From Conidiobolus incongruus B7586 (taxonomy: Eukaryota), in the NCBI GenBank assembly GCA_000697335.1, contig JNEM01013035.1, forward strand, positions 1-35,514: DNA of 35,514 nucleotides. Direction: 5' to 3'. A model generated the notes under the pieces. The model made no database searches. It worked only from the letters and a program-made list of their open reading frames with translations, and was not told the origin of the DNA. Both the position numbers and the translations under genes were made by a program. Position 1 is the stretch's first letter; every line of letters starts with the position of its first letter. Below, in pieces: positions 8,254 through 35,514 of the stretch.

Positions 8254-8958
8254 ATGCGCTTCTCTGGAGACAATATTAAAACTAACAACTCAAATTCAAT
8301 AGCTGAATTATTCTATGATAATCATTCCTTGCAGTCTGACTTTGATTCTAGTGATTCATTATCTGAACCCAACTCCATTGAATTATCAGCGATTATCGAT
8401 GCCTTGGCCAGCCCTTTGATCAATACCAATTTAACTAATAGTCAAAAGAAAAAATGCCCTAAAATTCCTCGTCCACCAAACTGCTTTATAATATATCGAA
8501 AATATATTTCTGATATTTTAAAATTGCAGCAAAACTATAACTGTCATACCCATAATACATCCAAAATTGCGTCCATAATGTGGAAAAATGAACCTGAAGA
8601 TGTTAAAATTCACTTTCAACGACTAGCCAAAAAATTAAAGCGTGAACATCAGAGGAAATATCCAGATTACAAATATCAGCCCAAGAGAGAAAAAACGAGA
8701 GAGACTAAAAATACAAAAGCTCTAAGCACAAGTAAACAAGCCACCACGCCGACTAATAACCCTATTGAGTTTAACAACACTCAATATCCAAATCCCCAAG
8801 AATTCAATTATGTTTATCAGAATCACCTCTCATACCCTATACAATTTACCATTTATAATCCGCAATTCGCTAATCAGATGAATTACAGTAATCCTTCAAA
8901 TCTTAACAATTTCATTTGTTTTGTTCCTTATACTCAACCCTATGATACATTTTTATAA
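8254..8958 (+). CDS. MATA_HMG/Sox-type HMG-box transcription factor (about 234 aa, single exon)
   Basis: HMG box KIPRPPNCFIIYRK...SKIASIMWKNEPEDVKIHFQRLAKKLKREHQRKYPDYKYQPKR at about 8461-8689 has the PRPPN-F, W and YPDYKY-P signatures of sequence-specific HMG boxes. First in-frame ATG is 8254 (the track start at 8170 is TTG). The C-terminal tail is rich in N/Q/P/Y. Confidence 0.9.
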   Translation: MRFSGDNIKTNNSNSIAELFYDNHSLQSDFDSSDSLSEPNSIELSAIIDALASPLINTNLTNSQKKKCPKIPRPPNCFIIYRKYISDILKLQQNYNCHTHNTSKIASIMWKNEPEDVKIHFQRLAKKLKREHQRKYPDYKYQPKREKTRETKNTKALSTSKQATTPTNNPIEFNNTQYPNPQEFNYVYQNHLSYPIQFTIYNPQFANQMNYSNPSNLNNFICFVPYTQPYDTFL

Positions 8959-10125: not shown

Positions 10126-13100
10126 CTATTCGGATGGATTATCTTTAGAAATTATATCGCATAATTCCTTGAAAGTGGTAGCGTTTGCTAATACGTCAGA
10201 GCATGCAAAGTCCAATAATTGCGCAATGGAGCACTGCTTGGTTTTTTCCATCAAAATTTGGTGAGCAATATTCAAAAAATAAACCGAGTTGGGATCTTCA
10301 ACATCTTGTTCGGTTTCATATTCTTTCCTATGCCAAGCATCGATAATGCTGGGGAGATAATAACATGTGGATGTAGTACTCATGCAAGTGGATGAAATAT
10401 CGTTAGGGGAGTCAGGGGCTAAAAGTCTTGAGATCGCGCACTTGGATTCGACTTCAGAAAGAACCGATTTGTTGAGTGGGAAGAGATTAGAAAGACTCTT
10501 AGAGTTAGCTGCATTGAAATCAGTAGATGGATCAAAGGGAGATGGCATAGATATTAATTCTGTTTTCACCTGACCAATATGAATGCTATCTTCTTTGCTC
10601 TCTAAAATCGTTACCGATGATTGCACAATAGTTTCACTCGTACCATTAGGTTGATTGTTTGTAGATTCATTGCCATTGTGTTCTATACCATTAGATAACT
10701 CTCTAGACTCTTGGACATGAGAGGTTTGATCAAATGAATCTGGTTCGCCATTAGCATGACCATTTTGTCTTTCAGCCAAGGCATTTGGCTCATTATCAGA
10801 ATTTTCTACAACAGGTTCAGTTGGTGGAAACTTCTCTAATCTGGCTTCACTAACTTGCTTATATTGATCCAAAACAAATGGATATTTGCCACCCAAGTTG
10901 TGATAAATGTCATACTCTAGCTGGAGAGCTGTTTGGACTATATAGTGTCCAGGATTTTTCATGTAAATAATAATATTATTGACTATAGAATTCAAATCAT
11001 CAAGCACTTGATCGAATGTTTCATAACTGAGATCGGCAAGCTTGTCCAAGATTGTAAGTAAGCAAACGGGTTTGTATTCTGGGGGCCAAGCACCTTCATT
11101 GTACATAGGCTCGCATAAGAGCGCAAACGAGGAATCGTGGAGGCAACCATGAATCACTTGAATTAAATCCTTGAGAACTAAATCCGATCCGGTAGAGCCA
11201 TCATTTAAAATCAACGAGTTTGCAGATTTTGGGTTAGGAGGAGAAAATCTTCCTCTAAATAGGGACTCTTTATCAGGTTTTGGAAGTTTTGATGAGAAAG
11301 AAGTCTCTAGTAAATTGATTAGGAATCTAGAACGCTGCTCCTCGGATGGATGAGAATTGACCTCATGAAACTGAGCCTGTGGAGGTTGCAAAAAATCGTA
11401 GCCATAGTCTTCGGGTGTTGCATTGGACGTTACTAATAAAACTACCTGGCAGAGTGGGCTTAAATGCTTCAGATACATATTTAGAATAGATATTACTTGA
11501 GTAAAGATTCGCGGGCTACTATCAATGAAGGGAATATATATGACAGATGTGGTGAAAGCAATGGGATGCATGGGAATCGATGCAAGTTGACGCTTCAATG
11601 CTTGGGGCACTGTGATACCGTCTGATTGACGAACAAGGTCAGACGCACTTAGCGTGAGAATTCGATCAACAGCTAACTGGTTTAGAATTGCCGATCCAAT
11701 CGAAGATAAAATATAAGGCGTGGTTCCATAAAGTACAAGCGATTTAGGAAGTTGGGGAACGAGAGGTGTTACAGTAGGTGGCTCAAGGTAGGGAGCAAAC
11801 CACTGACAGCAATAGTCCACTTCAGACTGAAGTAATGCAGACTGGTAGAAAGGCAGTGGAAATACATCCATCGATAATGCACGTCTGCCTGTGGGTACAA
11901 AGGTTGCTAGAGATTGTTCAAAATGAGCTTTGGTTACTTGAAGAGGCTGGTCACTGGCTCGATTAGTCAGCGATGACTGTATCTTCGCTTGAAGCAAAGA
12001 TTCATTACACACTAACTTGATATCCGCAGGTGTATATCCGTTGGTACGTGTAGCAAGCCAGTCTATTAAGTCATTGGGAGGAGGGACAGGCCAGTTTTGT
12101 GTGATCTTACTAAATACTTCCATACGAGAATAATGATCAGGAAGAGTAAATAAGAGCTCAGTACCAAATCTACCAGGTCTTCGGAGAGCAGGATCGATTG
12201 TTTCAGGGTGGTTGGTTGATGCAATTACTACAACCCCCTCGCGTTCCACTGCACCATCCATGAGCCCAAGCAACGTTGATACCATAGCGGTCAAGTGAGT
12301 CTCTTCAGATTCAATACGTGAAGGGGCTAAAGCGTCGATTTCATCCAAATAAATAATTGATGGCGCCCATTTCCTAGCAGCTTCGAATAGCTGAGTCAAA
12401 TTCTTTTCACCATCACCATAGTATTTAGATAGAAACTCTGTGGAATTCCTGAAAAAGAAAGCCCAAGGCTTACCATTACTCGACGTATCATTTGCTAGTG
12501 CCTGAGCGACCATCGTTTTACCAGTTCCGGGAGGCCCATAGAACAAAAAACCATTCTCAGGCTTTAAATTGATAGAGTCGTACAAAGCCTTATATTTGGT
12601 AGGTAGAACAAGTGTCTGGTTCAAAGTTTGAATTTGCTTTTTTAACCCTCCGAATTGATTCCATGTTACAGGTTTCTTGTTAAGGTTAAAAGAATTCAAT
12701 CTATCACCCTCGCTTAATAACTTCAACCTGTCATCGTTAATAATTTCTAAATTATCTGGTAAAATTACATTTTTCTTGATTTTTTCAGTATCTTTCTTTT
12801 CAGTAAAACCACGAAATAGTCTTTGAAGACCTGCTTCATCTTCAAGATCATTTAATTTAGAGGGCTCATGATCTAAGTCAGATAACTGAGCTTTACTAAG
12901 ATTTTGATTATCATAATAGTTGAACATTTCAGACTCTTGTGTTCCCATCATATGTGCAATTCGAGAAGATTTTCTAAATGCTCTGATACCTGTTTTGTTA
13001 TTATTTTGTCTCGTTCTAGATCTTGTTTCGTATCGCGGAGCTATTGTAGATTCAGCTTCAGAATCTTCTTGACGATTTTTGCTTCTTAAGTTATATTTAG

Positions 13101-13407
13101 GTGAAAGAATTTGATTTTGTTTTCGCTTTTTCTTAAGTTTAACTGATTCAGGTTCAGAATAAGATTCATCATATTCAGTGAGTTCAGAATTATCATTTAT
13201 AAAGTCTGAATCTCTGCGTAGTTTTTTATGTATAATCTCCTCTTCAACTTCATCCTCTATTTCCTCTTCACTAAAATCGTCATCGTCTGATTCCGACTTG
13301 TCAGGAACAAAATCCTCATCTTTGGGATTATCCTGAACATGAAAAGTTTCCATCTCTTCTTCAGAGTTGGAAGCGGAGTCATTAGAATTATTGTGATATG
13401 GAGACAT
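10126..13407 (-). CDS. YTA7: Yta7/ATAD2-like AAA+ ATPase histone chaperone with degenerate second AAA domain and bromodomain-like region (1093 aa, single exon)
   Basis: Acidic N-terminus, Walker A GPPGTGKT, ATAD2-type AFFFRNSTEFLSKYYGDGE, Walker B IIYLDEID, STLLGLMDG, SRH DPALRRPGRF. Degenerate AAA2 (LVLYG..., VIYIPFID). Bromodomain-like PVCLLTILDKL...YETFDQVLDDLNSIVNNIIIY at about 10880-11180. Confidence 0.85.
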   Translation of the reverse strand: MSPYHNNSNDSASNSEEEMETFHVQDNPKDEDFVPDKSESDDDDFSEEEIEDEVEEEIIHKKLRRDSDFINDNSELTEYDESYSEPESVKLKKKRKQNQILSPKYNLRSKNRQEDSEAESTIAPRYETRSRTRQNNNKTGIRAFRKSSRIAHMMGTQESEMFNYYDNQNLSKAQLSDLDHEPSKLNDLEDEAGLQRLFRGFTEKKDTEKIKKNVILPDNLEIINDDRLKLLSEGDRLNSFNLNKKPVTWNQFGGLKKQIQTLNQTLVLPTKYKALYDSINLKPENGFLFYGPPGTGKTMVAQALANDTSSNGKPWAFFFRNSTEFLSKYYGDGEKNLTQLFEAARKWAPSIIYLDEIDALAPSRIESEETHLTAMVSTLLGLMDGAVEREGVVVIASTNHPETIDPALRRPGRFGTELLFTLPDHYSRMEVFSKITQNWPVPPPNDLIDWLATRTNGYTPADIKLVCNESLLQAKIQSSLTNRASDQPLQVTKAHFEQSLATFVPTGRRALSMDVFPLPFYQSALLQSEVDYCCQWFAPYLEPPTVTPLVPQLPKSLVLYGTTPYILSSIGSAILNQLAVDRILTLSASDLVRQSDGITVPQALKRQLASIPMHPIAFTTSVIYIPFIDSSPRIFTQVISILNMYLKHLSPLCQVVLLVTSNATPEDYGYDFLQPPQAQFHEVNSHPSEEQRSRFLINLLETSFSSKLPKPDKESLFRGRFSPPNPKSANSLILNDGSTGSDLVLKDLIQVIHGCLHDSSFALLCEPMYNEGAWPPEYKPVCLLTILDKLADLSYETFDQVLDDLNSIVNNIIIYMKNPGHYIVQTALQLEYDIYHNLGGKYPFVLDQYKQVSEARLEKFPPTEPVVENSDNEPNALAERQNGHANGEPDSFDQTSHVQESRELSNGIEHNGNESTNNQPNGTSETIVQSSVTILESKEDSIHIGQVKTELISMPSPFDPSTDFNAANSKSLSNLFPLNKSVLSEVESKCAISRLLAPDSPNDISSTCMSTTSTCYYLPSIIDAWHRKEYETEQDVEDPNSVYFLNIAHQILMEKTKQCSIAQLLDFACSDVLANATTFKELCDIISKDNPSE

Positions 13408-14780: not shown

Positions 14781-14823
14781 TTTAAAATATTAATCTATTT
14801 ACAATAATTTAATTAAATTGAAA

Positions 14824-16122
14824 ATGATGACTTCTAACGTTGTTAAAGCAAGAACTTATAATAAATTAAATTTAAATGATGAACAATTGGCCAAATTGAA
14901 GCAAGTTTGGAAGAAGGTGTTGGACAAATTTAATAATGTAGAGCCTAAGCCTGTTGAGGAGAAGAGCTCTAGCAGCAGTGGTACTTTTGGTCGTTTTAGT
15001 TTAAAGAATATGGTTAGAATGAGTAGCTCATCATCTACTACTTCAGATCTAGATCTCAAGAAATCTGGTGAAGAGTTAAGACGTAGTATGTGGAACGTCG
15101 TACAATCCGATCACCCCGATAGTCTCGTTCTTCGTTATCTAGTTGCTCGTAAATGGAACGTTGACGACGCTGTCAAAATGTTTTTAAGCTCTCTCGAATT
15201 TTTCGATAGCGATGTACTTCACAAGGTGCAAAACGAAGGTGAAAGATGTATTCAAACCAGTCAGCTCGATAGCGGCGCGTTCTATTTCCACCAAACTGAT
15301 AAGGATGGCTATTTAACTCTTTACGTTCATGCTGCCAAAAATTTCCCATCCCAATATACTCAAGATGAGCAATTGATGTATACTTTGAATATTATGATCA
15401 CTGGTTATTTGATGCTAGGTGAATTGGGTACTATTACAGTTGTATTTGATATGAATGGATTTACTATGGCCAATTTGGTAATTAAAATTTTTTCATTAAT
15501 TTTATTGAATCTAATATTTTTTTAGGATTTGAATTATATGAAAACCTTAGCTAAATTGTTAAGCGATCAATATCCTGAAACTCTCAAAAGGGTCATTGTT
15601 CACGGAGCCCCTTGGATTTTCAACAGTAAGTTTTAGTCTTAGTGTATTCATTTAATATTGTTTGTCTAACCACTGATTATTTCATTAGCCGTATGGACCA
15701 CAATTTCTGCCTTCCTCGACCCTGTCATCAAATCCAAAGTTATTTTCACCAATGGAGACGAAATCAAAGAATACATCGAAGAATCCAAATTACCTAAAGT
15801 CCTAGGTGGTTCCAATAACTATGAGTTCAAATATGTTCCACCCTCAGAAGACGAAGTCCTCATGAAAGCTAAGGATGACCAATATGAAAAATTGGCCAAA
15901 GAAAGATCTGAACTGGTTGAGGAATTTGATCGTTTGACAGCTCAATGGATTGAGAGTAACGACGCTGAACTTAAAGCCAAGAGAGATGCTGTAGCTGATC
16001 AATTAGCAGCTAATCACCAAGCCATACACCCTTATATCCACTGTAAAAACATGTATCATCGCATCGGTGTTATTACACCATATGATAATATTAGCTGGGC
16101 CCCAGTAGCCAAGACTGAATAA
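14824..16122 (+). CDS. CRAL-TRIO/Sec14-family lipid transfer protein (Csr1/Sfh2-like), tandem copy A; exons 14824-15477, 15526-15625, 15689-16122 (395 aa)
   Basis: CRAL_TRIO_N motif HPDSLVLRYLVARKWNV, then VVFDMNGFTMANLD, YPETLKRVIVHGAPWIF, FLDPVIKSKV and LPKVLGG. Introns 15478-15525 and 15626-15688 are GT..AG with CTAAT/CTAAC branch sites, and the joined frame is open. Confidence 0.92.
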
Positions 16123-16982: not shown

Positions 16983-18088
16983 TGATATCAATATTTTTCA
17001 TACCTTGAAGACTGATTGTAAATAAATTAAAAAATTAATGTAATGGAATTTAATGAAACTTCGTAATTGAAATTGAATTTGATATGTTTTAAAAATGGCG
17101 AAATAATCATCGAGAAACTCAGTATTATTGATTCCTAAATAAATTAAATTTCAAGTACCTCTTTTTCCCAATATAAATTATCGCTAATAATTATCCCATA
17201 TTTAGCATTAAACATACTATTTTATTAATGATAAAATATTCTGGTTGGAATTTATAAAGAATTGATCACCTAGTAATAATTTCCACAATAATATAGAATA
17301 ATTATATATTTATCGATTTTTTTCACAATAAATCACACAACTAAATCATTTAACAACTATTATTAAAAACAATTTTCTTATTTTTTGATCTGGATTATAT
17401 TTTCATTTCTTACTTTTATAATCAATATTATTTGTAAATAATTGGATATGGTTTCTTAGATTAAATTAAAATAGTTCTTAATTTCTGAATTTTTATATTA
17501 AAACTTTAAATTAATTTGGGTTTATTTCAAAAATTTAGTATTATTTTGAAATTGAATTAATATATCTAAATGTCATTATATACTGACAGATTTTGATTTT
17601 TATATTAATCAATATATTTTATTATAAAATGCGATTCCTTTGAAAATATCATCCATTTTATATAATGTTTATGAGGTATAAAAAAGGACTATTAGCTCTT
17701 CTTTCGAATTATTACATTTATTTAATATTGACCTATAAATATAATAATAATACATACAATATTAAATTAATTTAATATGATTATGCTTCGCTTGGATCAT
17801 CCTATTTTAAATTCAACTCAGTTTCAACTTGGGACTGTTAAGAATTTAATCACATCACCTCTATTAACCCATAAGTTTACAACAATTCTGATCATATTTT
17901 ATTTTGTGTAGTGTCAATAGCAAGAATCATAGATACCACGTGTGTGAATGCTACGTGGCTTATGGTATATATCACAAAATACCACAATTTTACTCAACTT
18001 TTTTATATAATTAAATTATTTGGATTTTGATGTCGAATATAATATTGTAAACACATTTTGATTTATTAAATTGATTTTTGAGAATAAT

Positions 18089-19377
18089 ATGATGACTTAT
18101 AACTTAGTCAAAGCTAGAACTTATAATAAATTGGAATTGGAAAAGGACCAATTAGCTATTTTGAAGCAAGTGTGGAAGAAAGTACTGAATAAGTTGAATA
18201 ATATCGAGTCAGAACCTAGCGAGGACGAAAAGAAAAATGCGAGTAATACTGGATCATTCGGCAGGTTGAGCTTGAAGAAGATGCTGAGGATGAATAATTC
18301 ATCCACGTCTGTCAACGAGTTGGAACTGAGTAAGACTGGAGACGAGTTAAAACTTAGTCTTTGGAACTTGTTGCAATCGGACCATCCCGACGCCCTCCTG
18401 ATCCGATATATCGTAGCGCGCAAATGGAATGTGGACGATGCTGCCAAAATGTTCCTAGAGTCTTTGGAGTTTTTTGACGGAGACAATTTGCGCAAGTTGC
18501 AAACTGAAGGTGAGCGATGCATCCCTAGGAGTCAATTGGATAGTGGTGCATTTTACTTCCATCAAACTGACAAAGAGGGTTATTTAACCCTCTATGTTCA
18601 CGCTGCCAAGAATTTTCCTTCCCAATATACTCAAGATGAGCAATTGATGTATACTTTGAATGTGATTACTACCAGTTATTTGATGCTCGGAGAATTGGGA
18701 ACCATTACTATTGTGTTTAATTTGAATGGGTTTACAATGGCTAATTTGGTAATTAATTTTAATATATCACTATTATCATTCTAATATTTTTATAGGATTT
18801 AAATTATATGAAAACTTTAATCCAACTATTAACTGGGAAGATACCCGAAACACTCAAGAGAGTCATTATCCATGGAGCTCCCTGGATTTTCAATAGTAAT
18901 TATCTATATGAATTCACTGTTTATGTAATTAACCATGGGTAAATAGGTGTATGGAGTATAATATCTTCATTTTTGGATCCTGTAATCAAATCCAAAGTAG
19001 TGTTCACCAATGGAGACGAAATCAAAGAATACATCGATGAAGCCAAATTACCCGTGGAATTGGGAGGATCCAATCCCTACAAATATGAATACATTCCACC
19101 TGCTGAAGGTGAGACATTATTACCTAAAGATAGTCATTATGAGCAACTAGTTCAAGATCGTAGTGAATTGGCCCAAGAATTCGAGCGTATCACCTATCAA
19201 TGGATTGAGAGTGATAATGCAGAACTCAAGTCTAAGAGAGATCAATTAGCTGACCAATTGGCGGCTAATCATCAAGCTTTGTATCCTTACATCCACTGTA
19301 AGAATATGTACCATCGACTTGGTGTGATTACTCGCTACGATCAAATCAATTGGGCATCAGTTACCAAAACTGATTAA
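18089..19377 (+). CDS. CRAL-TRIO/Sec14-family lipid transfer protein (Csr1/Sfh2-like), tandem copy B; exons 18089-18748, 18796-18895, 18947-19377 (396 aa)
   Basis: Colinear with copy A (identical block SQLDSGAFYFHQTDK.GYLTLYVHAAKNFPSQYTQDEQLMYTLN). Introns 18749-18795 and 18896-18946 are at the same codon positions and phases, and exon 2 is 100 nt in both copies. Confidence 0.92.
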
Positions 19378-28237: not shown

Positions 28238-29607
28238 ATGGTTGGTGCTACTCCCTGTCCTCCTTCAAGAAGAAAATTTGATCATGCCGTGACAGTAGTT
28301 CGTCATTTACCTACTTCATTAAAATTACAGAGTGACGACCGTTTAAAGGTGCGTATAAATATATCTTATATTTCTTTATTGTCTAATATACTTTATCTTT
28401 CCTAATAGCTTTATGGGTTATATAAACAAGCCTCGGAGGAATTTACTCCTAAAAAGAAGCCGCGAAATAAGGATTGGTTATCACAAGCCAAATGGTACTA
28501 ATAATTTCTTTTAAAATATAATAACTCAATGGCTCGGCAATTTTTTACTTACACCATATATTATTAGGGATTCATGGAAAGAAGTCTCTCATTTAACTCA
28601 AGAGGAAGCTCAAGAAGAATATGTAAGAACCCTTGTTGAGGTAACACAAACTTTAAACGTGTTTTTACTCTTAATATTAACTTTCTCACCCTAGTTTTTA
28701 AAATCCTTTCCTGAGAGGCAACAGGCTGTGGACTTGGTTTCAGGCTTGGAGAGAAGTCTTCGTCTGACAGACTTTCAACTCGGAGTGTATCCTTCCTGGC
28801 CCCGCTCTACTCCACGCACGAAACGCTTTCCAAAATCTTGTTCCGCTGAACTTAACCAAACCAAAAGAGAAGCCATCCTCCAATATTGCCGTGACTCGGC
28901 TATTTACTTGCCCACAACTGACGGTGATGGTCACGATTCTATTCTCACCGACAATCCTCTAGATTCAACATTAAACACCGACATCCTACCTGATCAATAT
29001 CCCCAATATTCCAATCAAATACATCTCATGCACAATCAAAGTTTTAATGACCCTGCTGTCCCGGAGTCACCAATATCAAATGCAACAGAAATCCCAGACG
29101 ACTGTTCTGAGGATTCTTACGCATCTTCAGACGATGGTGAGAGCCTCTCCACTGTCACCATCCGCGCAAGTAACCACAGGTATTACCGAAGCCCTGCAGC
29201 CTCAGATAGACACGACTCTGTTGATTCTGGACTAAGCTCCGAAGCTGAGCTTGCACTTGAGTCTTTACAGTCACAAGTAGCCGTTCTGAACCAAAAAATT
29301 GATCTGCTTAAGCAAGACCTCAGGCAGACCGAAGTGATTCGTGCTCCCATAAGACCGTTTTGGCAAAGATTTTCCATGGATTGGCTTAAGACAGCAGCCT
29401 TGAATTTCTTCATTGGGGTGATTATTTTGACCCAATTCTATCGTATTCGATCCGTCCATCATCGATCAATTATTGTCTATTATTTCAACTATATAAATGC
29501 TTGCTGCCGTCGGTTTATTGGTAAATAATATTCTATATACATAAAATATTATGTATTAACTATTATATTTAGAAGCAGGACGAAGACTAATATCAAAAGA
29601 TTCTTAA
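28238..29607 (+). CDS. Acyl-CoA-binding domain protein with coiled coil and C-terminal transmembrane segment (ACBD4/5, Atg37-like); exons 28238-28348, 28409-28494, 28568-28640, 28695-29520, probable last exon 29573-29607 (or stop at 29528 if the last intron is retained)
   Basis: Spliced translation KFDHAVTVVRHLP...DRLK|LYGLYKQAS...P..KDWLSQAK|WDSW...EEAQEEYV is the ACBP signature. Introns 28349-28408, 28495-28567 and 28641-28694 are GT-AG and join in frame to the 28728-29528 ORF. Coiled coil LESLQSQVAVLNQKIDLLKQDL; hydrophobic segment WLKTAALNFFIGVIILTQFY. Confidence 0.85.
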
Positions 29608-31061: not shown

Positions 31062-31212
31062 TAACTATATGTTTTTTTAAATGAAACCTGGGCAAGATGT
31101 CATGTCCATGTAATATTGATTTCTAGCTATACTAAATATATTATGTATTTTTAGTCAAAAAAGGGAATTAGGTTATAATAGTGCACAGGTTTCATTTAAA
31201 AAAATATAGTTA
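31062..31212. mobile_element. MITE-like element, about 150 bp, with about 31-33 bp terminal inverted repeats
   Basis: Left arm TAACTATATGTTTTTTTAAATGAAACCTGGGCA (31062-31094) versus reverse complement of the right arm (31182-31212) TAACTATATTTTTTTAAATGAAACCTGTGCA. TA dinucleotide at both ends; no coding capacity. Confidence 0.6.
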
Positions 31213-33024
31213 TAAAATATCAAAAATTTTAAATAAAAATTTAACATTTATTTATAAATATTATATAATAAAAATCTATTCATTGTATTTTATGCTATTA
31301 TTTCATAATATACCTAAAAAATTTTAATAAAATATAAAATTATTATAATTAGTATTTTTTTGAAAAAAAAATTAAAATTTATAATATTACTTAGTATATT
31401 TAGAAATAAAAAATTTAAGGATTTTCAAAAACAAAGTAATTAATCATTTTTTAATGATTTATATCCTTATTGAATTTCTAATAGTATTTAACCCTTTTAT
31501 GATAAAGTTGTCAATTCCCTCAAAAATAGTATTAAATTGAAGGTCAATTCAATTTCAGATGAGAATACAATAATTGATTGCTGTGTATTATCATGATGCA
31601 TTCAACATTACACATTTCTATATTGGGACAATTTCCATCAATATGCATAGTTTGGTATTATGAACACAATTGTTAGTAATTTTGAAATAAAAATTTACTT
31701 GGTTTAATGTTATGTTGCTTAATTTAGTTTTCGTTATGATATATTGGTAAGAGAATATGTTGATAAATTGTTTTGTGTAAATTATTAGTTATTATATCAT
31801 AAATTATTGATTATATATTTCTCAATTATATTTCATATTCAATATTGGTTTAAATGACCATATTAAGGTTGAAAATGACTTTGAATTAGATCATATTAAT
31901 AGACTTATTCAAATATAAACTTTGCCATAATCCTGATATAATTACTATATGATAACATTAATGGATATCTATTATTTTTGAATATGATAAAGTAGTTCAT
32001 ATTAACTTGATTACTATGAATTTAACCATTCATGAAAAGAGAAAATAATATTAACCACAATTTATTATAAGTAATAGACCCACTTCTATAAGCTTGGAAA
32101 AATACTTTTTTGATGTTCTTAGCTATTAAATCCAGAAATAGCAGCTATAAGATTATATCAAATAGCCCTTTTGAATTGATGAAAATCAATAAAATTTCAA
32201 ATGGTTTATATTCACAGACCTGGTTATATAAATAGTTTGATTCAAAAAGTAGAAAGATGGATTATATAATTCCACAGAATAAATTTTAATTTTCAATTCA
32301 GCTTATTATTAGTTAAAGGACAAATAATGACTTTATAATATCAAAAACATTTGAATCAATCATATTCCATTGAAGGTTGTATTGATTGAATCAATATAAC
32401 AGAAGTATTATAAAAAACAATACAATCAAATTATAAATTGGAAAATATATTTTATATTTGTATATTAATAAAATAACAATTATATAAATCGAAATATGAT
32501 CAATGAACTTTAATTGAATAGTGAATTATCATGCGATGGAAAGTATACAAATACTTGTGAGTTGAGATATTTGTACATTGAGCAAAATAAGCTTTAAAGC
32601 ATAATTTTTTATTGTTGTTATATGGACTTTAAAATATGAAGTTAGATTAAATAATATGGTTAATTATTATAAATGGAAAAATGAACACCATTTTTATACA
32701 ATTAAATTCCAATAGCTTATTTGAATTAAAAATACGATATATATAATAAAATACTATACAAAATATTATGGAATAAAATAATGGGATGAATTTGCTACGT
32801 GTAAATAAATAAACCAAAATAGAATTGATCAGGATGGACCAATTAGAATTAACCACCTAAATTCCTACTAATTTATTTTATAATAGTTTTCATCATATAA
32901 ATAAAGTCAATTAATTCTTATTAAAAATTTCCAACAAAAATAATCGTAGAAACAGTCCAATACAATTAGAAAACTCCAGTATTATTAAATCTGATTTATA
33001 TAATTAAGTGTATTTATATTGCCC

Positions 33025-33864
33025 ATGTTCCCCTTTAAACAGTATATTCAACCAACTTACCACTTTGATCAATTAGATAACAGCCAGGGGAACATGGGCG
33101 CTTCACAGCAACAATTATCTGAACAGCCACTAACACCTGAGAATAGCGATCAATTTTGTTCTTCTTATATGCATCATAATTCTGTTCAAACTCCACCCAG
33201 CTATGAGCCTTATTCACCAAGTCATAGTCCACCAGTATATAAGCGCAAGAGGTGCAATCGAAATAGTCAAGCCTTTCTCACTTCCAGTTCACCAAAGCGT
33301 AGCTCCACTTCTACTGATCTAAGGAAGAGGAAAAGCCTCTGCAATTCAAATTTAACAAGAGAGCATAATACTGAACTTAAGCTACAGAACCAATTATTGG
33401 AAGAGAGAATGAAGAAGTTGGAAAAGAGTAATTCTATGGCTCATGAGCGTTTGAACTATTTAATGAATCAGGTAAATAATATTCAAGCTAAGCTTTCTGC
33501 CATCTCCACAGTCCAGTCAACCAATAATACAACAACCCGTGGTTTTGAAGCGTCGGCAGCACGCTTCAAGAGGGAACACTTTTCAGATTCTCGTTCCCTT
33601 TCCCTGCAGCGGAGACTACACTCGCCTTCCAAGAAGGCGCTCGACAGGCCAGTTGGAATTGGTTTCGAAGCAACGCCAAAAGAGTTCAACCAAATATTTT
33701 CAACTTCCTTTCATTCAATCTCCAAAATTGTTCTAAGCTTATTAACCTCATATCAGTTGGGATCTCGACTATGTCTGATAATGTTAGTTATGCTGAAACT
33801 TCAGCAATCTAATCGTCTTCCCCACAATCCTGATACCTCTTCTTATTCAAGTGACTCTCATTGA
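33025..33864 (+). CDS. HAC1: HAC1/XBP1-like leucine-zipper protein; unspliced form 279 aa (stop 33862-33864), predicted IRE1-spliced form 245 aa (33025-33556 joined to 33607-33812)
   Basis: Heptad zipper L-KLQNQL-L-EERMKK-L-EKSNSM-A-HERLNY-L-MNQVNN-I preceded by basic patches PPVYKRKR and RKRK. Twin IRE1-type hairpins lie downstream of the zipper, and the unspliced frame has a hydrophobic tail. The canonical bZIP N-x7-R basic helix is not recognisable, which lowers confidence in orthology. Confidence 0.7.
   Translation: MFPFKQYIQPTYHFDQLDNSQGNMGASQQQLSEQPLTPENSDQFCSSYMHHNSVQTPPSYEPYSPSHSPPVYKRKRCNRNSQAFLTSSSPKRSSTSTDLRKRKSLCNSNLTREHNTELKLQNQLLEERMKKLEKSNSMAHERLNYLMNQVNNIQAKLSAISTVQSTNNTTTRGFEASAARFKREHFSDSRSLSLQRRLHSPSKKALDRPVGIGFEATPKEFNQIFSTSFHSISKIVLSLLTSYQLGSRLCLIMLVMLKLQQSNRLPHNPDTSSYSSDSH
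33557..33606 (+). other. Predicted non-spliceosomal (IRE1-cleaved) 50-nt intron
   Basis: 5' hairpin: TTGAAGCGT (33545-33553) / loop CGGCAGC (33554-33560) / ACGCTTCAA (33561-33569). 3' hairpin: TTTCC (33599-33603) / loop CTGCAGC (33604-33610) / GGAGA (33611-33615). Both loops fit the 7-nt CNG'CNGN consensus, giving cuts after G33556 and G33606. Confidence 0.85.
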
Positions 33865-34727
33865 ATAAATCGGGTGAGATTATTATCATATTTAATTAGT
33901 ATATGCATAGATAAGTATTTAACAACATAACGTTTGCTTTTCCCTTAATTCAAATCATTGGTTCTTCGAAATACTATCTATGATACTCCATGTTCATAGT
34001 CATTAATCTTAACATAAATATTGCTTATTTACCACAAATTGATTAATATATTAATAATTTAATCTCAACGATATTAATATATAAATTAAATAATTATCAT
34101 TCCAATACAAAATACAATTTATTAGATTTATATTGATATTCTAATATAATACAGAGCACAGGTTACTGATGATATATCCAGATACAAAAATTTTTAGCTT
34201 GAGAAAAATATTAGATATTTAACAATATCATAATTAATACTAATATAATATTTCAAATAAATATTAATGTTATTAATTTTTTTTAATATAGGTCATTTAT
34301 AATTTATAATATAAATACATCATAAAGAAAATAAATTACTTTTACTCAAATTTGCTAATATACATTTTTTTAAATATAATTTTAAATATTCGATAATCAA
34401 ATAATGCTATTTCAAGAATATGTGTTTTATATTAAATGTTGCATAATATTGAATATAAAGCTTGATTCTTGAATTAATTCACAGCATACCCTTTTGAATT
34501 ATTACCAAGATTGATGATAAAATATAATTAGTATATAATAAAAAAATACCATTTATAAGTATATTCAAGCATATCAAATATTTGAATTAATTATTACTTT
34601 GTAATTTAAATAATGAAAGTTTTTTAAGATTGAACAAAATAAATATTTTAATATATAATATTGATTTAATACTTTGTTTTATTAATAATAACTATATATA
34701 TTATTTTTAGCAAGCTTTTAATGTTTG

Positions 34728-35339
34728 AAAAATAGTTTTTATATTAAAGACTAAAATTTAATATTTTACAAACTAATTAAATTTTTTATAGAAATTCTCT
34801 TTCTTATAAGCTTGTTTTTAAGCTTTAATTAAATTAAAAGGTATTTATTTTATAATTTTATTAATTAATTTAAGTTTAAACTTTAATATATCTAAAATAC
34901 TTATATAATTAATATTATAATATTTTAATTATTTTATCAATTATTAAAAATTACTATTATTTTATAATTTAAATAATAAAAATTTTTTATGATTAAAAAA
35001 AACATTTTAATATATAATAATAAATTAATATTTTTTTTCTAATAACTTTTTACTATATTTTTAATCAAGTTTTAATACTTAAAAAATAGTTTTTTTTATT
35101 AAAGACTAAAATTTAATATTCTATAAACTAATTAAAGATTTATTAATTATAATAATTTATTATAAAAGTTTTAATTTCTAGTTATACTTTAATAAGTTTT
35201 GTTTAATAATAGCTACTCTAACTTTTTATAAGCTTTAAATAAATTATAAGGTATTTATTTTATATTTTTATTATTTAATTTTAATTTAAACTTTAATATA
35301 TATAAAACACTTATGTAACTAATATTAAAATATTTTAAT
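34728..35339. repeat. Degenerate direct (tandem) duplication in extremely AT-rich DNA
   Basis: About 34728-34791 matches about 35083-35136 (ATTAAAGACTAAAATTTAATATT), and 34821-34929 matches 35231-35339 ungapped (AGCTTTAA.TAAATTA.AAGGTATTTATTTTATA.TTTTATTA...TTTAAACTTTAATATA). Confidence 0.85.
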
Positions 35340-35514
35340 AATTCTTTAACTAAAATAAAGATGTTTTTTAGTATATTTTTTTAATTTATTAACAATTAAA
35401 AAAATAATAGTTAAAATTAATCTTTTAAATTTTAATAAGTTTTAAATATTTTTTTTAATTTTAAAATAATTTACCTAATAATAAATTATTAATTTAAATA
35501 ATATTTTATTATTA

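Follow-up and report, generated by a model that had tools for sequence, protein, structure and literature searches.

A 50-nt element flanked by twin hairpins in an open reading frame (ORF) of Conidiobolus incongruus B7586 (contig JNEM01013035.1) is probably an intron spliced by IRE1. The whole stretch of DNA that was analysed, hereafter the window, is 35,514 nt long. The twin-hairpin feature is real, and all elements named in a preceding reading of the letters and translations (the sequence-only reading) are confirmed at their positions (Table 1). We consider it very likely that the 50-nt element is of the IRE1 type by origin, and likely that the intron is spliced at the present time. The host gene is best read as a divergent, IRE1-switched derivative of HAC1 that has likely lost normal DNA binding. 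The intron is ordinary in type; the interest lies in the host gene, whose DNA-binding motif is not intact, and in a 5′ stem that involves two AUG codons.

Table 1. Features of the host gene and of the predicted intron, in the order of their positions in the window
Feature	Coordinates	Strand	Description
TACGTG, core of yeast UPRE-2	32796..32801	+	229 nt upstream of the first ATG
Inverted repeat, 5′ arm	33021..33034	+	perfect 14 bp, 9/14 G+C; contains ATG 33025
Host ORF, unspliced form	33025..33864	+	279 aa from the first ATG; other in-frame ATGs at 33094 and 33169
Inverted repeat, 3′ arm	33086..33099	+	contains ATG 33094
Split basic region	33241..33333	+	basic clusters at residues 73–76 and 100–103; Ser/Thr-rich, proline-containing stretch between them
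Leucine-zipper-like coiled coil	33355..33504	+	d positions: T, L, L, L, A, L, I, I; a positions: N, N, M, N, L, V, L
Exon–exon closing stem, 5′ strand (S1-like)	33539..33544	+	partner strand 33614–33619
5′ splice-site hairpin (S2-like)	33545..33569	+	9 bp; loop CGG|CAGC; predicted cut after 33556
Predicted unconventional intron	33557..33606	+	50 nt, 3n+2, 50% G+C
Intron-internal hairpin	33571..33599	+	7 perfect bp (33571–33577/33593–33599), 15-nt loop
3′ splice-site hairpin (S3-like)	33601..33613	+	3 bp; loop CUG|CAGC; predicted cut after 33606
Second frame entered after predicted splicing	33607..33812	+	67 more codons, 245-aa product
Hydrophobic segment in the tail of the unspliced form, absent after predicted splicing	33739..33795	+	residues 239–257; Kyte-Doolittle 19-mer mean 1.56

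Hairpins, fold and tests against chance

The 5′ hairpin has the nine-pair stem and the loop CGGCAGC ascribed to it by the sequence-only reading, with positions 33545–33553 pairing with 33561–33569 entirely by Watson-Crick pairs (11 pairs when G·U is counted) around the loop at 33554–33560. The claim of a 3–5 bp stem under the loop CUGCAGC (33604–33610) of the second hairpin holds as well, as there are three Watson-Crick pairs and five with G·U included. The same is true of the internal hairpin, in which AGGGAAC and GTTCCCT pair perfectly, and of the spacing of 50 nt between cuts placed after the third base of each loop. In the translation of the ORF frame the splice sites encode SAA and LQ, also as claimed. 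The splice sites of XBP1 encode SAA and LQ too. Ends of the GT–AG type, which had been said to be missing, and of the GC–AG type are absent from all six equivalent registers of the 50-nt segment, and its G+C content of 50% compares with 10–29% in seven neighbouring introns placed by eye. The twin 7-nt loops on their stems fit the IRE1 consensus CNG′CNGN, as given in the available text of PMC8071499.

An RNA of 81 nt takes up a cloverleaf fold with a z-score of −2.25 (4/200 shuffles). The minimum free energy structure partly closes loop 1, and keeping the two 7-nt loops open raises the energy by 1.2 kcal/mol over that minimum. Hairpin 2 is reduced to three pairs in the cloverleaf because its outer bases are taken by the inner and closing stems. 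When whole mRNAs were folded, hairpin 1 stayed (0.57–1.0 per pair), as did the inner hairpin (0.94–1.0), and the probability of hairpin 2 dropped to 0.18–0.28. As for the exon–exon closing stem proposed by the sequence-only reading, GTGGT and ACTAC do pair (33539–33543 with 33615–33619, four Watson-Crick pairs and one G·U), and the zippering of the exons grows after cleavage from six to eight pairs (+2); the stem is probable in the local fold (0.9) but improbable in whole-mRNA folds (0.08–0.16).

The sequence-only reading had also proposed a scan with covariance models. The Rfam models of Hac1/Xbp1 introns gave no relevant match to the intron at E values up to 10. According to the available text of PMC11701678, the Hac1/Xbp1 intron family held in Rfam 15 (RF04247) is metazoan, and a 50-nt fungal intron therefore need not match it.

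Two additional structures were seen downstream. Local folds contain a further 7-bp hairpin at 33623–33639, directly 3′ of the closing stem. In addition, the region of the 5′ splice hairpin has a degenerate counterpart of 29 nt at positions 33661–33689 (20/29 identical), which lacks an IRE1 loop and lies 120 nt downstream of the hairpin 1 region in the same frame. That this copy is a real repeat is unproven: its similarity was reached in 46 of 200 ORF shuffles, and in none of 500 when the query was fixed.

The site was chosen post hoc from a genome-wide scan and its folding z-score is just −2.25, both of which would suit hairpins arranged by chance within a coding stretch rich in G+C. The counts obtained for such arrangements make this explanation highly improbable. 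Counting both strands, the window holds 40 CNGCNGN sites; the stems of the two intron loops (11 and 5 pairs including G·U) are longer than any other, the next best stem having 4. Dinucleotide shuffles of the ORF, 20,000 in all, never yielded two loops of which one stem reached at least 9 pairs and the other at least 4; both stems reached at least 5 in one shuffle and at least 4 in three. With block shuffles of the whole window, neither the combination of at least 9 with at least 4 nor that of two stems of at least 5 appeared (0/300 each). A negative control came from metagenome stretches, at least 120 in number, in which both loop sequences occur; among the matches listed, the probability of closing the 5′ loop reached at least 0.5 in 0 of 120, compared with 0.99 in the host ORF. 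The best tblastn E value of these stretches was 0.17 and 119 of the 120 listed had more than 40% G+C. None of the matches listed is related to the host ORF, and they serve solely as a negative control. Chance would, moreover, have to account for the independent 14-bp stem at the 5′ end of the same gene and for the effect of the intron on the reading frame.

Reading frames and the host protein

Removal of the intron converts the 279-aa product into one of 245 aa by a frameshift into a second open frame. The tail acquired in this way is not acidic (4 D/E and 5 K/R in 67 residues). The tail that is lost contains the hydrophobic segment, which begins about 40 residues ahead of the stop codon; the best segment of the spliced form scores 0.92. 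The AlphaFold2 program predicts a helix at residues 218–262, over the unspliced tail. In synonymous resampling with the unspliced protein held fixed, the second frame was open in 54 of 20,000 sequences, and the reverse test gave 347 of 20,000; the third frame is open as well, for 41 codons, so that these figures overstate the rarity.

The codon-use test was trained on ten other exons, with stop codons excluded. Upstream of the intron, codon use favours the ORF frame (+0.081 ± 0.037); after the intron it runs against it (−0.18 ± 0.07), and the signal of the spliced frame is neutral (−0.02 ± 0.06; third frame 0.00). In windows of real exons an off frame outscored the true frame in 3 of 41 cases. 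The G+C content of the window is 12–43% per kb and that of its non-coding DNA is 12–21%; spliceosomal genes are present.

The neutral codon signal of the spliced tail might be expected if the gene were a decaying HAC1 duplicate that has no remaining role and retains inherited hairpins. The 3′ hairpin, which is weak in the context of the mRNA, the split basic region described below, the failure to find homologues and the occurrence of tandem duplication in the window (two CRAL-TRIO genes) point the same way. Nevertheless, 279 codons have stayed open in a region where non-coding DNA has so low a G+C content, the coding signal upstream of the intron is intact, both frames are open, and the stems of 9, 7 and 14 bp are perfect. 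Decay that erased the protein similarity should have broken these stems and frames, and their integrity argues against such a history, which we regard as quite improbable.

As for the protein itself, leucine-zipper-like heptads upstream of the intron are present as a pattern and have no family match. AlphaFold2 models a helix at residues 96–185, with pLDDT values of 88–98 across residues 101–160, and the intron starts 18 codons past the last hydrophobic heptad position of the coil. The coil may resemble the zippers of ascomycete HacA proteins. A homodimer prediction for residues 70–170 scored 0.18. Ahead of the coil lies the split basic region, a possible nuclear localisation signal judged by its residues. 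The Ser/Thr-rich stretch between its clusters makes the spacing about a dozen residues too long. A comparable split signature arose in 21 of 500 shuffles of residues 60–99, and it is therefore at most suggestive of a disrupted basic region. In the available text of PMC4891664 the basic motif N-x7-R/K is described as conserved in Hac1, XBP1 and bZIP60; it is absent from the host ORF in register with the zipper.

A spliceosomal intron that would restore the basic register was sought. None is plausible: the ten that are formally possible suffer from a poor donor or a low count of basic residues. The GT–AG candidate within the basic region is 37 nt long with 46% G+C, compared with 47–74 nt and 10–29% in seven neighbours, and it also ends the protein at 97 aa.

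Database searches with the protein gave the following results. No Pfam bZIP match was found for the whole ORF or for five fragments, PDB sequences gave no match, and a fold search gave none at E values up to 0.001. No relatives were recovered among 485 word-sharing candidates or among 1.84 billion representatives at E values up to 0.001. Exact sequence look-ups matched in 0 of 6 cases (one query started one codon past the second ATG), and none of the 492 matches of a metagenome peptide-pattern search was confirmed as a homologue. The parent collection of these representatives contains a protein of C. coronatus, and, provided that the HAC1 of C. coronatus is annotated there, the absence of relatives in these comparisons would suit a copy that has diverged more than an orthologue that has stayed conserved. 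The split of the basic region and the absence of a bZIP match were overlooked by the sequence-only reading; with two defining features of HAC1/XBP1 bZIP proteins lacking, the host protein is not filed as a member of that group.

Descent of the host gene from HAC1 is, in our estimate, likely. The protein could alternatively belong to a working HAC1 orthologue that is spliced by IRE1 and drives genes that belong to the unfolded protein response (UPR), using either a strongly diverged basic region or a DNA-binding partner. The full HAC1-type set of features (intron, hydrophobic unspliced tail, 5′ stem and a weak UPRE-2 core) would agree with this, and Hac1 orthologues are described in the available parts of PMC10680797 and PMC3154848 as poorly conserved and hard to detect. 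But the motif reported as conserved in PMC4891664 is absent in register, Pfam recognises no bZIP domain, a match to the protein of the congener would be expected and none was found, and the spliced tail is not acidic. We consider a working orthologue rather unlikely.

It is improbable that the gene is an independent IRE1 substrate unrelated to HAC1, that is, a coiled-coil gene in which twin cleavage hairpins arose to serve either splicing or regulated decay (RIDD). Such an origin would be compatible with a bZIP ancestry that has no database support, and RIDD is known in several fungi, according to the available text of PMC13703316. However, basic clusters, coil, SAA/LQ intron and hydrophobic tail follow one another as they do in HAC1/XBP1, and decay needs neither a 3n+2 spacing nor a second open frame.

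The 5′ stem and the surroundings of the gene

The inverted repeat at the start of the ORF, also overlooked by the sequence-only reading, forms a 14-bp stem in which the first two in-frame AUGs are paired with each other's flanks. A repeat of the same length with at least 7 G+C was found in 0 of 2,000 shuffles of the gene region and in 0 of 100 shuffles of the window. The stem has a probability of 0.9–1.0 in whole-mRNA folds, and the folding z-score of positions 33015–33105 is −4.24. The arms of the repeat and the inner hairpin of the intron have a word of 7–8 nt in common. Yeast-like pairing between the two arms of this 5′ repeat and the intron is unproven, its energies being −12.8 and −16.3 kcal/mol versus −30.4 kcal/mol for pairing of arm with arm.

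By analogy, the 14-bp stem recalls the translational block of Aspergillus hacA. In Aspergillus niger a base-paired element at the 5′ end of hacA represses translation until the start site moves downstream, according to the available parts of PMC13703316 and PMC8071499. Upstream of the host ORF there is a TACGTG motif, given as the UPRE-2 core in the available text of PMC8670139; it weighs little, since TACGTG occurs six times in the window against 2.9 expected.

Several other features of the window were annotated. An HMG-box gene at 8257–8958 (+; PF00505, E value 3e-14) also shows a weak match to the MAT-alpha HMG domain (E value 0.022) and could encode a mating-type-like or SOX-like regulator. 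The single-ORF gene at 10126–13404 (−), with AAA and bromodomain matches, is one that we take to be Yta7/ATAD2-like. Its identity to P0001, a protein whose 90% cluster includes KXN71493.1 of Conidiobolus coronatus, is 71% overall and 97% in the AAA part. On the basis of this one gene, the source of the DNA is placed with Conidiobolus-like fungi of the Entomophthorales and apart from C. coronatus. Tandem CRAL-TRIO paralogues with an identical exon layout lie at 14794–16122 and 18062–19377 (+). The closest upstream neighbour of the host ORF is a multi-exon gene at 28239–29528 (+), presumably acyl-CoA-binding-protein-like as judged by eye, with a C-terminal coil and a hydrophobic end. Between these genes and the host ORF, the intergenic DNA holds an inverted repeat with perfect arms of 19 bp (31072–31204, 133 nt overall), possibly a remnant of a small mobile element. 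The region 34700–35400 is very A+T-rich and, by eye, appears to hold degenerate direct repeats about 360 nt apart. A search for flavoprotein exons at an overly strict threshold found nothing.

Comparison with known systems and a proposed mechanism

The published systems are compared here as they appear in the available parts of the papers cited. Lengths of IRE1-type introns are given as 20–26, 65 and 252 nt (PMC8071499) and, in the CTG clade, as 19–22 nt and up to 848 nt (PMC6222058); the intron of Cryptococcus HXL1 has 56 nt (PMC3154848) and that of Ustilago cib1 has 65 nt (PMC8071499). The sequence-only reading did not recognise the length and fold of the C. incongruus intron from described cases. 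A claim of novelty on this ground is weak: published lengths span 19–848 nt, so that 50 nt is unremarkable, and the fold corresponds to the bifurcated stem-loop of XBP1 with one intron hairpin added. It also gave known short introns (20, 23, 26, 56 and 65 nt) as being 3n+2 long; the published lengths of 19 and 252 nt do not have this form.

Metazoan XBP1 (26-nt intron, PMC4687415) shares with the host gene the twin 7-nt G|CAGC loops, an S1 stem (predicted in the host gene) with S2 and S3 arms, and a 3n+2 frameshift. In XBP1u and bZIP60u, as predicted for the host protein, a hydrophobic segment is lost on splicing (PMC11077094). In contrast to XBP1, the host intron has 50 nt and an internal hairpin, its 5′ loop begins with CGG and not with C(C/U)G, zippering of the exons adds two pairs as against five in XBP1 (PMC4687415), there is no match to RF04247 and no intact basic motif, and the spliced tail is short and not acidic.

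The hacA/HAC1 genes of filamentous ascomycetes (20–23-nt intron) resemble the host gene in their CNG′CNGN twin hairpins and long unspliced tail. Aspergillus niger hacA shares with it strong base pairing at the 5′ end, which in the host gene would block translation. The host gene differs from hacA by its longer intron, by the in-frame AUG in each arm of the stem, and by the lack of a recognisable bZIP domain. Cryptococcus HXL1 and Ustilago cib1 are similar to the host gene as hard-to-find fungal genes with Ire1 introns of middle length and 3n+2 form; however, HXL1 keeps its bZIP domain, which is put in frame by an upstream conventional intron, and the host gene has no plausible equivalent of that intron. 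Plant bZIP60 (23-nt intron, PMC11077094) likewise has a C-terminal hydrophobic segment that is removed by splicing, and the activation domain does not have to lie in its spliced tail. The basic region of bZIP60 is intact and its segment is a true transmembrane one, whereas the hydrophobic mean in the host protein is 1.56. A non-canonical intron was also seen in HAC1 of Rhizopus (PMC10680797).

Among the matches listed in the literature search, no description of an IRE1/HAC1 pathway in Conidiobolus or the Entomophthorales was found, and short Hac1 peptide motifs yielded nothing relevant. The literature search gave no match for an IRE1-spliced gene without a basic region, although early-diverging fungal examples may be in print. 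A survey of IRE1-type introns was reportedly published by Hooks and Griffiths-Jones in 2011.

By its layout alone, the host protein may be likened to CHOP/DDIT3. CHOP has a zipper with a proline-interrupted basic region and works through dimer partners in ER stress. It is induced by transcription and translation and not by IRE1 splicing.

The IRE1 splicing switch proposed by the sequence-only reading has good support from architecture, chance tests, frame effects and 5′ structure; the homologue searches found no orthologue. Our best explanation, advanced tentatively, is that the intron is spliced by IRE1 in a gene descended from HAC1/XBP1, whose product, a zipper-like coil protein without an intact DNA-binding motif, would act as a partner or a brake in the UPR, switched by stress. 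If IRE1-type origin, present splicing and descent from HAC1 are granted, the role of a zipper partner is slightly favoured.

The mechanism proposed for this stress-switched partner takes IRE1 cleavage, sealing by tRNA ligase, tethering at the ER and damping of translation from the HAC1/XBP1 pathway. In unstressed cells, the 5′ stem would damp translation of the long mRNA, and the hydrophobic tail of the unspliced protein would tether the ribosome–mRNA complex to the ER. With the onset of ER stress, IRE1 would cleave after G33556 and G33606; the exons would be held together by the closing stem and then sealed by tRNA ligase. The sealed mRNA would yield the 245-aa protein without the hydrophobic tail, and this protein, with its two basic clusters, could enter the nucleus. 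There, having no N-x7-R/K motif in register, it may pair through its zipper with a true bZIP factor instead of contacting UPR elements in the customary manner.

A more specific proposal, which must be regarded as speculative, is that the gene is a second IRE1 substrate of the fungus: a zipper-only paralogue of HAC1, with its AUGs gated by the 14-bp stem, that is activated through the same cleavage and ligation as the activator, then quenches or redirects it, and so provides a brake of the UPR timed by splicing.

Programs that call ORFs detect the unspliced form alone. Should the gene be no more than a HAC1 that has diverged, it would count as an ordinary new member of the group, to which the length of the intron adds little. 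An intact IRE1-type intron beside a split DNA-binding motif would point either to a second, inhibitory substrate of IRE1 or to a HAC1 without a canonical basic region, and it would mark the UPR pathway in the Entomophthorales.
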